Positions 20,331 to 46,122 of a DNA stretch of 64,000 bases are shown here, piece after piece. The notes beneath the pieces were generated by a model that made no database searches, was not told where the DNA came from, and saw only the letters and a list, made by a program, of their open reading frames with translations. Position 1 is the stretch's first letter, and each line of letters starts with the position of its first letter. The position numbers and the translations under genes are program-made. Source of the stretch: Octopus vulgaris (taxonomy: Eukaryota); the NCBI GenBank assembly GCA_951406725.2, contig OX597826.1, positions 26,722,001 through 26,786,000 on the forward strand, in the 5' to 3' direction.

Positions 20331-20333
<3 letters not shown>

Positions 20334-20449
20334 GGTCCCGGGTTGATTCGGGGTTAACCACAGTAAGTAAGGTACTCAAGTAAGGTACTGAGCTTCCTGA
20401 AGATTTCTCTTGAATGAAACAGTACTAGTCCTGTAGAAGCTCCTTCTAT

Positions 20450-20456
<7 letters not shown>
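20331..20456. mobile_element. Miniature PLE-type element (inverted tail + hammerhead-like motif) in (TA)n
   Basis: 20331-20379 is the reverse complement of 46034-46082; 20391-20450 is a direct copy of 45946-46005. Confidence 0.85.
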
Positions 20457-20509
<53 letters not shown>

Positions 20510-20511
<2 letters not shown>

Positions 20512-21200
20512 AAAGGCTTCCAAATAAGGAAGCGTAGTGCTAGAACACAAAAAGGGATAAATTCCTGAAAGGAATGAAAATTAAAAACATTTACCATCTC
20601 AGCTGTATCCCAGACCGAACGGTTTCTACCTATTTTTAGCAAACACACAGAATATATTTGCCAGGCCAGGTTCTTCAGAGGAAAGCCTTCGTAATCCTAG
20701 ACACACAGACTGTTAGAAGCACATGTAGAAGCATTGTATATATAAAATTTTTCAAACCTCTGCGCAGACGCAAATCATACCCGGCGAACAGAGAGGATGC
20801 CGGTAAAAAATTTACGAACAAATTTATCAAGCAATATTTAAACATAATCAAATAGGGTAATAAAATAAATTACAGGTAATAATAATTTATTTTATTACCC
20901 TATTTGATTATGTTTAAATATTGCTTGATAAATTTGTTCGTAAATTTTTTACCGGCATCCTCTCTGTCGCCGGGTATGATTTGCGTCTGTGTAGAGGTTT
21001 GAAAAGTTAGGATATACAAACCGTTAGATCTACATGTGCTTCTAACAGTCTGTGCGTCTAGGATATAATTTGTTCATAGAAGGTTTGCCACTACGGTTTA
21101 TAATTCGCTCCAGTAGGTGAGCAACATCATCAGGACAGAATATACTAATCTCTCGGTAAAACTATAGATTATAAAGAGAAAAGAAAATTTACTCTGATAA
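20510..21200 (-). mobile_element. PLE-type terminal fragment with hammerhead motif and inverted repeat
   Basis: 20510-20690 is homologous to 33885-34055; inverted repeat 20695-20872 / 20883-21063. Confidence 0.7.
20607..20685 (-). ncRNA. Type I hammerhead ribozyme motif
   Basis: UUUCCU CUGAAGA - long helix II - GAAACC GUUC GGUC UGGGA. Confidence 0.7.
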
Positions 21201-21480: not shown

Positions 21481-21603
21481 TCACACACATGTACGTATAT
21501 GTATATGTATATATCTATATGTATGTATGTATGTGTATATATATATATATACATACACAGCCATGTATATATAAATATATGTATATATATATATATATAT
21601 ATA

Positions 21604-21998
21604 CTAGCAGTATCGCCCGGCGTTGCTCGGGTTTGTAAGGGAAATAATTATATAATCATTTTTAGAGATGTAAAGTATAATAGCCATCTCAATATGGCTA
21701 ACCACAAAGGGGGAGGGGTGTTACTGTAGCTTTTTACGTTCTGAGATTTAATAATAAATTTTAGAGAGTTACTTCCCTTATATATGTCAAAAATGGATTA
21801 AAAATGGGAAGAATTGATGGTAATTTTTTTTTTTAATCGTAGACTCATCGTAGACGCGCGCTAATACCCAGACGGTCTCGATATGAATCACGACTATAAG
21901 ATACCCGGTTTTGGTTAAACTGCACCGCAAAATGTGGGAGTAGTTAGGAATCTAAATCGTAGGAGACATACACACAACCTCACTTTTATATATAAAGA
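21604..21998 (-). mobile_element. Non-autonomous Helitron
   Basis: 5' TC, 3' CTAG, subterminal hairpin CCCGAGC-AAC-GCCGGG, inserted at A|T with no TSD; second copy at 23674-24306. Confidence 0.85.
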
Positions 21999-22097
21999 TT
22001 TCCTCTATTTACATAATATTGAGGTCTCTTTCTTTCTTTTGTTATCTTACTGTTTTTACCAATATACATATATATATATATATATAAATATATATAT

Positions 22098-22421
22098 AGT
22101 TACAGAGATGTACTTGCATAGCAAGTGACTTGATCTGAGATCGTGTGCTGGAACGAAAACAGTTGCAGCGTTGAAGGTGTTTATAAGCCATTTAAGAAAC
22201 ACACAAAAACCGTTAGATTCACTTCAACATTTAAATTTAATTTGTCAAAATATTTTCATCGCTTTGAGACCGCGATCTGTTAGCACGATATTTTTGTCAG
22301 TGAACAGGTCGCGGTCTCAAAGCGACGAAAATATTTTGGCAAATTAAATTTAAATGTTGAAGTGAATGTAACGGTTTTTGTGTGTTTCTTAAATGGCTTA
22401 CAAACACCTTCCACGCTGCAA
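22098..22421. mobile_element. PLE-type fold-back element in (TA)n
   Basis: Inverted arms 22163-22281 / 22303-22421, one-sided ~65-bp extension, hammerhead-shaped motif at 22293-22343. Confidence 0.75.
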
Positions 22422-22439
22422 TATATATATACACACATA

Positions 22440-22474
<35 letters not shown>

Positions 22475-22789
22475 GTGTATATGTGTATGCATGTATGTGT
22501 GTGTGTGTGCGTGTCTGTGCTTGTGATTGTCCTCCACCACTGCTTGACAACGAATGTTGGTTTGTTTACATCCCTGTCACCTAGTGGTTTGACAAAGGAA
22601 ACAGATAGAATAAGTACAATGCTTACAAAAATAAAACGAGTTGATTCATTAAACTACAATTCTTCAAGGCATTGCCCCAGCATGGCCACAGACCAATGGC
22701 TGGAAAAAGCAGAAGAATAAAAGAATACATTCTCTGCTTTGGTCTTATGTTCAAGGCATGAGAAAGCTTGAGTTTACATGAGAAGGCCT

Positions 22790-23165
22790 AACAGACCTGG
22801 TAGAAACAGCAGCCAAATCTCCCTCAAATCACACCTTACTGTCTTATGTATGTATATATATATGAGCCAATGAGGGGGACCTCTACATGGTAGCTAGACC
22901 TGGTAGAAATAGCAGCCAAATTTCCCCCAAATCACACCTTACTGTCTTATCTATGTATATATGTATGTATGAGCCTATGAGGGAGACCCCTACATGGCAG
23001 CTAGACCTGGTAGAAATAGCAGCCAAATTTCCCCCAAATCACACCTTACTGTCTTATCTATGTATATATGTATGTATGAGCCTATGAGGGAGACCCCTAC
23101 ATGGCAGCTAGACATGGTAGAAATAGCAGCCAAATCTCCCTCAAATCACACCTTACTGTCTTATC
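22790..23165 (+). repeat. Minisatellite, ~107-bp unit x ~3.5
   Basis: ACATGG.AGCTAGAC.TGGTAGAAATAGCAGCC recurs at 22885, 22992 and 23099. Confidence 0.95.
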
Positions 23166-23399
23166 TTTCTGCTACATGGATATAGGTGTTATATTCGTCG
23201 TAAAAAACTTTCCTGTCACACACTCACGCACACGCACACACACACACACACACGCGCCCTCACACACACACACACGCGCACACCCACACACACCCACTCA
23301 CACACACGCACGTTAGCTTACAATTTTATTTATATATTTGCGTGTCTGTGTGGAAAGAGGAAGTGGGAGGCAGAGTGAAAGAATCACTCACTACAGTAA

Positions 23400-23673
23400 G
23401 TCAATTACTTTCATTTTATTCGTTGCCCACTGTGTGTGTGCGTTTGCGTGTGCTGTAAACCAGACTAAGAAAAGCATTTGACACACACACCAGAATGTGA
23501 GTTTTCTGTAAATTTTGCTTAACTGGAGTTTAAATTTTAAAAACTGGACCTGGCATGACGCGATGCATTGTACTCTTAAAAATGCAAGGTAAATTGTAAT
23601 TGAAGAAATCCTATATTGTAGATTTGTATAACTCCCAAAGGGAGGCAGATAAAATCTGCCTTTTATAATAAGA
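23400..23673 (-). mobile_element. Second Helitron-like family, 5' part
   Basis: Starts TCTTATTATAAAAGGCAGAT with hairpin AGGCAGAT..ATCTGCCT; near-identical copy at 25492-25762. Confidence 0.6.
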
Positions 23674-33724: not shown

Positions 33725-33772
<48 letters not shown>

Positions 33773-33776
<4 letters not shown>

Positions 33777-34257
33777 AAGAAGGGTAGTAATATTATTTAC
33801 TACCAGGTGCCCAGCACAAAAGACGAATTAGTCATAAGACAAAAATATTATTCATATAGAAAAATATTATTCATGTAGTTATACAATTAAGGGCTCCTAA
33901 ATAAAGATGCCGAGTGCTGGGAACACAAAAAGGGGATGAATTTATCGAGAGTGAAAATCAAAAACGTTTACCGATAACTTTAACAACTCGTACCGCGGTT
34001 TCTGCTTCTTTCTAGCAAAACACAGAATATGTTTGCTAAGGCCAGCTTCATCAGCAGACCTCGATTAAATTTAGGCGACTCGCTGATGAAGCTGGCCTTA
34101 GCAAACATATTCTGTGTTTTGCTAGAAAGAAGCAGAAACCGCGGTACGAGTTGTTAAAGTTATCGGTAAACGTTTTTGATTTTCACTCTCGATAAATTCA
34201 TCCCCTTTTTGTGTTCCCAGCACTCGGCATCTTTATTTAGGAGCCCTTAATTGTATA
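33773..34257. mobile_element. PLE-type fold-back element in (TA)n
   Basis: Apparently perfect ~176-bp arms 33880-34055 / 34082-34257, 26-bp spacer, one-sided ~105-bp extension, (TA)n on both sides. Confidence 0.85.
34076..34153 (+). ncRNA. Minimal type I hammerhead ribozyme with intact core
   Basis: Helix I CGACUCG/CGAGUUG, CUGAUGA, extended helix II, GAAAC CGCG GUA (palindromic ACCGCGGU); predicted cleavage after 34146. Confidence 0.85.
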
Positions 34258-34276
34258 TATATATATATATATATAA

Positions 34277-34329
<53 letters not shown>

Positions 34330-34827
34330 ATATATATACACACTTATATATATATATGTATATATATATATGTATATATAAAATAAATATAAGAGAGTGG
34401 TCACTATATTGCTCACTCTAGCACCAGTTAATCCAAAAGGTTTCAACCACGAAAATACATGCTTACCATGAAAGTCAGTACGATTGTTAGCTCACACGGA
34501 CAGGGCAAATAAAAAATAACAAAAATACAGATTATTTTGGGACAATTGTTTCGCTATTAATGAATTAAATGTAATTTTACTTACAAAAAAAAATCCATTT
34601 GTAGCTCGTCAGCCAAGACTATCTGGATGAAATCCACTCAATCACACGCCAGATTTTACCATAACGATAAATACGCGTGTGGTTCAATTGATTACATCCG
34701 ACGTTATAATTCAAATGCCCCAACCAACAGCGCGCCAAACTTTCACGGAAAACAAATACAGCATTTAGAAATAAATGCAGCATAATTATATTAATTAATT
34801 ATATGTATATATATATATGTATATAGA

Positions 34828-42833: not shown

Positions 42834-42839
<6 letters not shown>

Positions 42840-43222
42840 TATATAGAAGGAGCTTCTACAGGACTAGTACTGTTTCATTCAAGAGAAATCTTCAGGAAGC
42901 TATTTAACAAGAATTGTATTAGCATTTATACATTTAGGCAGGTTTAAAGGAGTGGTAGTGGGGGACTTTTTGGGGGTAGGAGCGCAAAATATCATACTTG
43001 GGGGAGTGGTCAAGGAGTCAGTGGTAAGTTAGATGAAAGAATAGATAAATAAAAAAATAAAAAAATAAAAAATATATATAAAAAAATATATATATAAAAA
43101 ATATATATATAAAAAAAGGGGGGGATAGAGTTATAGGTAAATAAGGAGATTCTCACTTATACCTATACACACATGTATACGTATCTACACACACATATAT
43201 ATATACACATATATATATATAT

Positions 43223-43261
<39 letters not shown>

Positions 43262-44145
43262 TACATATACACATATACACACATACATACATATCTACAT
43301 ACACACATACATACACCCGCCCACATATACAAATTTATACACATGCACATGCCTATACCTGTCTACACATACACACACGTATATATGCATACACTCACTC
43401 CCATGCATGCACGCATACACACATGTATATATATATATATACCCACGACCACACATACATATATACACATAAAAATATATATTCATACGCACATACACTC
43501 ATGCACACACAACACACCTAGTTCCCTATATACACATATTTACACCTATATATACATACACCCACATACACCTATGTACATATATATATATATAAACATA
43601 TACACGCATACATATATATACATGTGTGCACATACATACATACACACATATATACATACACATACACATACACATGTGTACCTATACATACCTACACATA
43701 CACACATACATACATACAAATATATATATACATATATATATATATACAATCCAATACAGGCCCATTCCCTAATTTTAATTTTATTATCTTCATTTATTAC
43801 TTTTGTTATCTTTGATCGCTAGAGCTAAGAATCCTGGCAATGGCTGCATGTCCATTTGTCTGTCTACTAGAAGGCAAGTACTCATTCCCGCACGCACACT
43901 CATTAGCACGTACATTCACCCATTCGTACACTCATACACATACACGTACGCACGCGTTATATTCATACATACAAACATCTACATACGTTCACGTATATAC
44001 ACATACGTACTCGTACCTACAGATTCGTGTCTACACTTTAGGAGGCTAGTCTATACATATACACCAATAAATATACATATATATATATATATACACACAT
44101 ATACATACACACACACACATATATACTCCTACATACAGATACATA

Positions 44146-44183
<38 letters not shown>

Positions 44184-44357
44184 CATACACATACACACAT
44201 ACATATACACACACATACATACACATATATATACATACACAAACATATATACACACATATATATATACATACACACATACACACATACATACGTATACAT
44301 ACATACATACATCCATACATCCATACTTACATGCATTTATACGCATACACACACCCA

Positions 44358-44394
<37 letters not shown>

Positions 44395-44431
44395 TCACAC
44401 ATACACTCATACACACATACACACATACACT

Positions 44432-44479
<48 letters not shown>

Positions 44480-44659
44480 TATAGATGGGTGTGTGTATGC
44501 GTATAAATGCATGTAAGTATGGATGTATGGATGTATGTATGTATGTATACGTATGTATGTGTGTATGTGTGTATGTATATATATATGTGTGTATATATGT
44601 TTGTGTATGTATATATATGTGTATGTATGTGTGTGTATATGTATGTGTGTATGTGTATG

Positions 44660-44701
<42 letters not shown>

Positions 44702-45585
44702 TATGTATCTGTATGTAGGAGTATATATGTGTGTGTGTGTATGTATATGTGTGTATATATATATATATATGTATATTTATTGGTGTATATGTATAGACTA
44801 GCCTCCTAAAGTGTAGACACGAATCTGTAGGTACGAGTACGTATGTGTATATACGTGAACGTATGTAGATGTTTGTATGTATGAATATAACGCGTGCGTA
44901 CGTGTATGTGTATGAGTGTACGAATGGGTGAATGTACGTGCTAATGAGTGTGCGTGCGGGAATGAGTACTTGCCTTCTAGTAGACAGACAAATGGACATG
45001 CAGCCATTGCCAGGATTCTTAGCTCTAGCGATCAAAGATAACAAAAGTAATAAATGAAGATAATAAAATTAAAATTAGGGAATGGGCCTGTATTGGATTG
45101 TATATATATATATATGTATATATATATTTGTATGTATGTATGTGTGTATGTGTAGGTATGTATAGGTACACATGTGTATGTGTATGTGTATGTATATATG
45201 TGTGTATGTATGTATGTGCACACATGTATATATATGTATGCGTGTATATGTTTATATATATATATATGTACATAGGTGTATGTGGGTGTATGTATATATA
45301 GGTGTAAATATGTGTATATAGGGAACTAGGTGTGTTGTGTGTGCATGAGTGTATGTGCGTATGAATATATATTTTTATGTGTATATATGTATGTGTGGTC
45401 GTGGGTATATATATATATATACATGTGTGTATGCGTGCATGCATGGGAGTGAGTGTATGCATATATACGTGTGTGTATGTGTAGACAGGTATAGGCATGT
45501 GCATGTGTATAAATTTGTATATGTGGGCGGGTGTATGTATGTGTGTATGTAGATATGTATGTATGTGTGTATATGTGTATATGTA

Positions 45586-45624
<39 letters not shown>

Positions 45625-46079
45625 ATATATATATATATGTGTATATATATGTGTGTGTAGATACGTATACATGTGTGTATAGGTATAAGTGAGAATCTCC
45701 TTATTTACCTATAACTCTATCCCCCCCTTTTTTATATATATATATTTTTATATATATATTTTTTATATATATTTTTTATTTTTTTATTTTTTTATTTATC
45801 TATTCTTTCATCTAACTTACCACTGACTCCTTGACCACTCCCCCAAGTATGATATTTTGCGCTATGCCTACCCCCAAAAAGTCCCCCACTACCACTCCTT
45901 TAAACCTGCCTAAATGTATAAATGCTAATACAATTCTTGTTAAATAGCTTCCTGAAGATTTCTCTTGAATGAAACAGTACTAGTCCTGTAGAAGCTCCTT
46001 CTATATAATAAATTAATTTTACTCTGCTATGTATTGAGTACCTTACTTACTGTGGTTAACCCCGAATCAACCCGGGACC

Positions 46080-46083
<4 letters not shown>
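42834..46083. mobile_element. 3.2-kb palindromic PLE-type fold-back element
   Basis: Arms about 42834-44388 / 44436-46013, near-identical; hammerhead-like motif at both outer ends; one-sided tail 46014-46083; (TA)n flanks. Confidence 0.85.
45946..45996 (+). ncRNA. Hammerhead-like motif (also at 42850-42901 minus and 20391-20441 plus)
   Basis: AGCUUC CUGAAGA uUUC-UCUU-GAAu GAAAC AGUACU A GUC cugua GAAGCU; helix I offset by 5 nt. Confidence 0.6.

Positions 46084-46122
<39 letters not shown>

Follow-up and report, generated by a model that had tools for sequence, protein, structure and literature searches.

Inverted insertions of a predicted 445-bp retrozyme in (TA)n tracts of Octopus vulgaris pair two different fixed end sites

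The window, a stretch of 64,000 nucleotides of Octopus vulgaris DNA that was analysed as a whole, contains insertions with inverted arms associated with (TA)n tracts (Table 1). At 33774-34257, two inverted arms that are identical at 176 of 176 positions enclose a 26-bp spacer, with a one-sided tail of about 106 bp and (TA)n on both sides. The initial annotation, which presented this locus as the type example of fold-back elements targeted to (TA)n, had described the same arrangement, and all of its parts were confirmed.

Table 1. Positions of the insertions, their parts and associated elements in the window.
Feature	Position	Strand	Remarks
Presumed Helitron-like non-autonomous carrier, TC...hairpin-CTAG ends	21603..23673	-	holds the 22098 fold-back
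Two-ended insertion of a further TA-targeting family, older and fixed within the carrier	22099..22421	.	no hammerhead found
Stub of the predicted Hydra-clade element; a short B end (-), inverted, precedes a hammerhead with core 20397 and cleavage predicted after 20435, which is followed by the A end (+)	20331..20456	.
Inverted copy of a diverged 445-bp-unit subfamily with its A end on the left and a damaged helix I	20509..21064	.
Left (TA)n target	33734..33773	.	TA tract
Tail, unit ~112-222, between putative start sites A and B; outer end at site B	33774..33879	-	runs on from the left arm within the 445-bp unit
Left arm, putative B-primed copy, from unit 381 across the cut site to 111; its ribozyme is without the 5' strand of helix I	33880..34055	-
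Spacer, unit 355-380, 5' extension of the right arm	34056..34081	+	junction microhomology 1-2 nt
Predicted type I hammerhead: core 34083; cleavage predicted after 34146 (GUA); helix III palindromic, helix II arm long	34074..34155	+
Right arm, putative A-primed copy with its end at unit 111, site A	34082..34257	+
Right (TA)n target	34254..34391	.	TA tract
A-ended arm: 3' UTR of the predicted Hydra-clade element with hammerhead (core 42895)	42846..44389	-
B-ended arm: 3' UTR of the predicted Hydra-clade element, hammerhead (core 45952), tail	44454..46084	+

When the right arm was searched against the genome to which the window belongs, matches were found in tandem, 445 bp apart. A 445-bp unit was derived from locus L011 and numbered from the predicted ribozyme cut (u positions). 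In this numbering the window copy runs on the minus strand from u222 to u381, joined on the plus strand to u354 through u111. Tail, arms and spacer are thus pieces of one tandem unit with ordinary unit sequence, and the window copy is a sub-monomer stub of it. Because all parts derive from this one unit, we reject the reading of the locus as a designed fold-back element. The (TA)n flanks of the earlier interpretation stand, but the fold-back identity does not: the unit, a non-coding tandem repeat with a predicted type I hammerhead, is classed by its sequence as a non-LTR retrozyme. Exact matches in the genome number 135 for a 22-mer at the cut site and 300 for a 30-mer common to the subfamilies.

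The hammerhead predicted on the plus strand of the right arm has a 9-bp helix I, the core CUGAUGA at 34083 and GAAA at 34135, and the descriptor match places the predicted cut after 34146, at GUA. The copy in the left arm lacks the 5' strand of helix I; both the full motif and the incomplete copy had been described before and were confirmed. A relaxed descriptor, in which the base of helix II need not be paired, matched four distinct sites in the window (20397, 34083, 42895 and 45952), compared with one match in 30 shuffled windows. An Rfam search at the gathering threshold gave no match, and the active core was not formed in the lowest-energy fold (z -1.14). The motif had been called minimal, which for Penelope-like elements (PLEs) means no helix III, a helix I of 4-5 bp and a helix II of 7-8 bp (PMC4209133). 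That label does not hold, as helix I has 9 bp, a helix III of 2 bp carries a palindromic tetraloop, and the helix II arm is 45 nt long, which is unusual. By the definitions in the same paper, the predicted motif is of the canonical type I found in metazoans, with a helix III that is short and palindromic. Between subfamilies, all five inner pairs of helix I are replaced with pairing intact, and helix III is palindromic or nearly so in three sequence forms, which bears out its palindromic nature. Because pairing and palindrome are kept despite sequence change, the comparison argues for selection that maintains a ribozyme working as a dimer.

Sixty-three insertions of the unit were mapped from 40 scored arm matches and the first 100 of the 135 listed 22-mer matches; they were classed after removal of a secondary segment at L111 and a 24-bp duplication at L017. 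The 3' ends concentrate at two sites 111 nt apart, A and B: 80 of 93 ends lie within u97-116 (A) or u207-230 (B), windows that were drawn after the data had been seen. About half of the sampled inserts (30/63) are inverted, and these comprise 22 A/B pairs, no A/A or B/B pair and 8 inserts in which one of the ends lies off-site (p = 5e-7 against 50:50); every inverted insert with both ends on-site (22/22) pairs A with B. The 33 direct inserts end at B in 20 cases, at A in 8 and elsewhere in 5. TA flanks are present on both sides of 49 of the 63 insertions, on one side of 12 and on neither side of 2, in agreement with the TA targeting proposed initially. The inner junctions of inverted inserts are spread over the unit and mostly show 0-4 nt of overlap or short filler. 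In 35 of the 63 inserts the run is longer than one unit, with arrays of up to about 10 units (L095). A consensus fold around A and B, in which 5 of 32 pairs are changed on both sides among 10 sequences from few lineages, gains weak support from these paired changes.

Calls at common SNPs agree between the two arms of one insert in 117 of 117 cases (21 inserts), compared with 58% between inserts, and units within one insert differ by 0.6%, compared with 2.2% between inserts. A shared haplotype of this kind fits both a circle and a linear multimer; at L106, variants are common to neighbouring units only. Both the pairing and the haplotypes bear on the idea that the arms are made by two separate RNA-protein complexes or by two successive insertions into one (TA)n. 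Several TA tracts do hold elements side by side, as at 20331 and 20509 in the window and at L111, L230, L414 and L424 (the extra ends at L414 were read as neighbouring insertions), which suits separate events. Were the events independent, same-site pairs (A/A and B/B) and mixed haplotypes would be expected, and neither is seen; we regard this origin as largely refuted and very improbable.

A relative of the type example, about 70% identical and with a unit of about 440 bp, occupies 20509-21064 and was absent from the initial annotation. Its arms are identical at only 167 of 174 positions and it carries an insertion of 11-15 bp near unit 265 (window 20790-20990), which marks it as older than the type example. 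It adjoins the stub at 20331-20456, 50 bp away in the same TA tract. Among 30 loci of this diverged subfamily, read by eye, 17 are inverted: 11 are A/B, none pairs a site with itself, and 6 have an off-site end. A block of about 34 nt at unit ~279-310 (L011; region of 20755-20775 in the window) retains 91-94% identity between the subfamilies that are otherwise about 70% identical, and is a candidate promoter or protein-binding site.

The inverted layout had also been reported, with unrelated sequence, at 42834-46083 and in reduced form at 20331-20456. The layout is real, but the two insertions belong to one family, in which a 37-mer has 1889 exact matches and a 40-mer at the B end has 2250. 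The arms of the longer copy (42847-44389 and 44454-46000) are identical at 1538 of 1539 aligned positions, and this 3.2-kb palindrome consists of two copies of a microsatellite-rich 3' UTR. Family members, located by pattern searches, include tandem copies 5.2-5.4 kb apart (unit 5193 bp) in which ribozyme and tail are followed by an ORF. Intact copies (L241, L244) encode 713 amino acids in a single ORF, in which, as read by eye, an RT is followed by a C-terminal GIY-YIG domain, with DKT, a CxCX5C linker, CxxC and CxH, and without CCHH. At 1e-20, 1116 of 7992 scored proteins are related to this protein, and its relatives carry PF26215 and, in a few cases, PF01541 or PF00078. Neither an RT nor a GIY-YIG family was detected when both pieces of a frameshifted copy were scanned with Pfam, and the 713-aa protein matches a Pfam-positive PLE protein weakly (22%, E 3e-6), in keeping with the divergence reported for the Hydra clade. 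From these features we assign the insertions at 20331 and 42834 as truncated ends of a coding Hydra-clade PLE; they are the 3' UTR and ribozyme of an autonomous element and not the non-coding family envisaged before.

The end pairing of the 445-bp unit recurs in this family. All 19 inverted pairs that were fetched, as well as the two window copies, are A/B. An inverted insertion mode common to unrelated families, as first suggested, is upheld; the Hydra family, too, lies in (TA)n. For 90 B-anchored ends among the first 100 listed, the nearest outward-facing partner is an A end in 67, one of which belongs to a neighbour, leaving an inverted partner at 66 of the 90 sampled B ends, the figure from this one family that bears on the initial proposal of a major source of long palindromes; none has a B partner, and 23 have no partner in the stretch fetched, which for 11 of these was 1.5 kb only. 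Extra ends at L227 and L228 were read as neighbouring insertions.

The inner ends of these arms have a preferred position. Of the 90 B arms, 35 have their 5' end by the ribozyme's 5' edge (-45 to -35 relative to the cut) and another 35 beyond -200; among the A arms, 37 of 67 begin 35-45 nt ahead of the cut. This junction hot spot (L351-L440), which sits at a self-complementary 4-mer and is possibly an RNA start or an RT stop, yields palindromic stubs of about 220 bp, to which the copy at 20331-20456 is related. The 3' UTR itself (L211, L212; 42846-46084 in the window) comprises about 2.9 kb of TA/TG-rich microsatellite that includes (TA)n, and the element thereby spreads its own target sequence. 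Two loci (L214, L219) have the ORF of another PLE family inside or beside Hydra-element copies. Many near-identical copies (L231-L240) have an ORF stop at 501 aa, others being intact at 713 aa, and this broken sublineage appears from its sequences to be spreading in trans. A second Hydra-clade family (L291-L320) has a 711-aa ORF that is intact in many copies, a hammerhead, RWK and two 3' ends about 70 nt apart.

The insertion at 22098-22421, likewise listed as a recurrence of the layout, has arms (22163-22281 and 22303-22421) that are identical at 113 of 119 positions. The relaxed descriptor found no hammerhead in it, and no link to an ORF was found. Both of its flanks are common to the loci compared (30/30 and 30/30, one of the latter with an internal deletion; 649 matches), which places it in a carrier of about 2.07 kb with about 650 copies. 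The layout at this locus is real, but we reject an independently spreading palindromic element, since the loci lie in the same carrier; its roughly 650 copies are those of a passenger. Outside the carrier there are three parent-like copies, whose ends fall at two sites in TA, and the insertion therefore probably arose as the type example did. The carrier we take to be Helitron-like from its termini, as it starts with 5' TC, ends with a 3' hairpin and CTAG, is inserted between A and T, and occurs in head-to-tail copies. It also holds SINE-like pieces and a 107-bp tandem repeat, and the end of another carrier copy follows head-to-tail at 23673.

Ribozyme cut sites were considered as insertion ends and rejected. 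In the 445-bp family 117 cut sites are read through and of 108 segment 5' ends only 2 coincide with the cut, as does 1 of 90 B-arm 5' ends in the Hydra family. Given the tandem unit and its arrays, the A and B sites and their pairing, the variable inner junctions, the common haplotype of the arms and the TA flanks, we think it probable that the copy at 33774-34257 is a double-primed inverted insertion of the 445-bp unit, made in trans by the RT/GIY-YIG enzyme of a PLE. Such an enzyme would cut both strands of (TA)n, and one DNA end would prime at A and the other at B, fixed internal sites of the RNA; a dimeric enzyme probably would act on one RNA, or on RNAs of one source locus. Both cDNAs, which have the same sense, would extend 5'-ward across the ribozyme in its uncut or religated state, end at varying positions and be joined by 0-4 nt of microhomology or short filler. 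The stretch between A and B would remain as the one-sided tail, the longer 5' reach of one arm would form the spacer, and a primer yielding little or nothing would leave a plain direct insert. Because cut sites are read through, the template would be an uncleaved multimer or a religated circle. We infer a single RNA with strand displacement; arm identity could also come from gene conversion or from two RNAs of one locus.

Arm identity and the one-sided tail would also be directly accounted for by self-priming or fold-back, in which one cDNA, or an antisense template (PMC3846280), copies itself and an endonuclease resolves one end short to leave the tail. The length of 9 of the 22 A/B inserts is compatible with fold-back of a B-primed cDNA, and the self-complementary 4-mer at the Hydra-family hot spot suits it. 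Against this, in 13 of the 22 inserts, including the window copy, the A arm extends further 5' than the B arm, so that neither arm was copied from the other: the A arm has 5' sequence missing from the B arm, the B arm has a tail missing from the A arm, and fold-back cannot produce these inserts. The same pattern of mutual absence is found in 18 of 50 short pairs of the Hydra family, in which 7 B arms end within the tail and have no overlap with the A arm. We consider fold-back unlikely, and return to double priming. A stricter version, which we see as evenly balanced between right and wrong, would make asymmetric double priming obligatory: an enzyme dimer would hold both ends of the TA break on a single uncleaved RNA, with its active sites fixed at A and B and the trailing RT displacing the leading cDNA; retrozymes would hitch-hike because they keep the folded two-site domain, and the ribozyme would serve RNA maturation and not the insertion ends. 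The Hydra-family stop at the ribozyme 5' edge would then be an RNA start, and 5' pLTR priming would mass-produce the ~220-bp palindromic stubs.

The link to PLEs drawn in the initial annotation holds; in the Hydra family, ribozyme, tail and ORF lie in one unit. Weighing against the proposed origin of the 445-bp insertions, a partner of the unit was not found among three coding PLE families (781-aa, 713-aa and 711-aa), none of which has sequence similarity to it. Nor was pLTR homology of an autonomous PLE to the unit seen among the 63-150 candidates scored of 6,000-34,000 in the genome. Both Hydra families have hairpin boxes after their start sites (one box in one family, two in the other), and none was found 3' of A or B in the 445-bp unit. 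The 781-aa family (L113-L120), with RT and GIY-YIG, has TA-ended copies, two ends 34 nt apart and a long repetitive 3' UTR; the descriptor pattern found no hammerhead core in it, and we presume it to be Neptune-like from its linker motif.

No RNA record containing the 445-bp family was listed; contigs of four short-read runs cover it, and none of them spans the junction or an empty (TA)n site. That no independent record bridges the junction, the contigs being short-read only, would suit an origin of the palindromes as assembly or library artefacts. Chimeric reads do not fit the A/B asymmetry, which is fixed across dozens of loci of three families, nor the filler bases at junctions and the age-diverged arms (113/119 at 22098), and we judge this explanation extremely unlikely.

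Inverted copies that carry a tail on one side, insertion into (TA)n and a pair of start sites have already been published, and taken by itself the insertion joins classes that are known. What these data usefully add is that its ends nearly always occupy two different fixed sites. The origin of tandem and inverted PLE insertions and the role of the hammerhead have been stated as open questions (PMC8557442; PMC11167929), and counts from young families place quantitative constraints on PLE integration, namely A/B end pairing, one arm haplotype and cut sites that are read through. A 445-nt RNA and intact Hydra-clade ORFs of 711-713 aa in one genome provide a compact test system, suited to asking directly if retrozymes can be mobilised in trans by a PLE enzyme. 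In the passages of the literature that describe these insertions we found neither a strict count of A/B pairing nor a stop at the ribozyme 5' edge; supplements may hold these families or counts. The main text of the 2026 octopus repeat annotation reports active Penelope-like families, without hammerheads, retrozymes or Hydra (PMC13282606).

Tandem type I hammerhead repeats are known as retrozymes (PMC7229834; Cervera and de la Pena, 2020), for which a PLE origin has been proposed (Li et al., 2026; bioRxiv 10.64898/2026.07.22.740005). Like metazoan non-LTR retrozymes, the 445-bp unit is a non-coding, head-to-tail repeat of a few hundred bp (range about 150-450 bp) with low GC and one type I hammerhead per unit, dispersed as monomers to multimers, with movement by PLEs proposed. 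Two or more consecutive intact type I ribozyme motifs, the feature used by Li et al., occur in one run in 14 of the 63 inserts. The unit differs in lying at the upper end of the size range, in its 45-nt helix II arm, in its ends at two fixed internal sites and in the inversion of about half of its sampled inserts. Its footprint, with an inverted truncated copy, a tail, two 3' ends and a TA target, is that of a non-autonomous PLE derivative.

PLE insertions with an inverted 5'-truncated copy, a one-sided tail and a bias for (TA)n have been described (PMC8557442). The EN-bearing PLEs with inverted pLTRs share the inverted 5'-truncated copy, a tail at one end and microsatellite targets (PMC8557442, Figure 2 legend; PMC3846280), but their tail has 30-40 nt, compared with about 111 nt in the 445-bp unit and about 75 nt in the Hydra family; in the passages concerned the tail is termed optional or placed 'often at one end', and A/B pairs are not counted. 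The Hydra clade is defined by DKT, CxCX5C, CxxC and CxH without CCHH, with elements generally under 3 kb and RWK (PMC8557442, section 11). The 713-aa family shares the clade motifs, a canonical hammerhead and (TA)n insertion, but has RWR and, because of its ~2.9-kb microsatellite-rich UTR, a unit of 5.2-5.4 kb; small size and RWK are typical rather than strict features of the clade.

The closest experimental system is Poseidon PAc of Anolis (PMC11167929; Frangieh et al., 2024), in which both strands are cut and extended in vitro by a predicted dimer, two internal RT start sites bound the tail, and ribozyme cleavage is dispensable. In common with the 445-bp unit, it has two RT start sites downstream of the hammerhead, an AT-rich target and an uncleaved RNA template. 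The start site was the same for both strands in vitro, the pairing of sites lying outside those assays, and the PAc sites have no homology to the target, whereas sites A and B of the 445-bp unit both have TA-rich microhomology.
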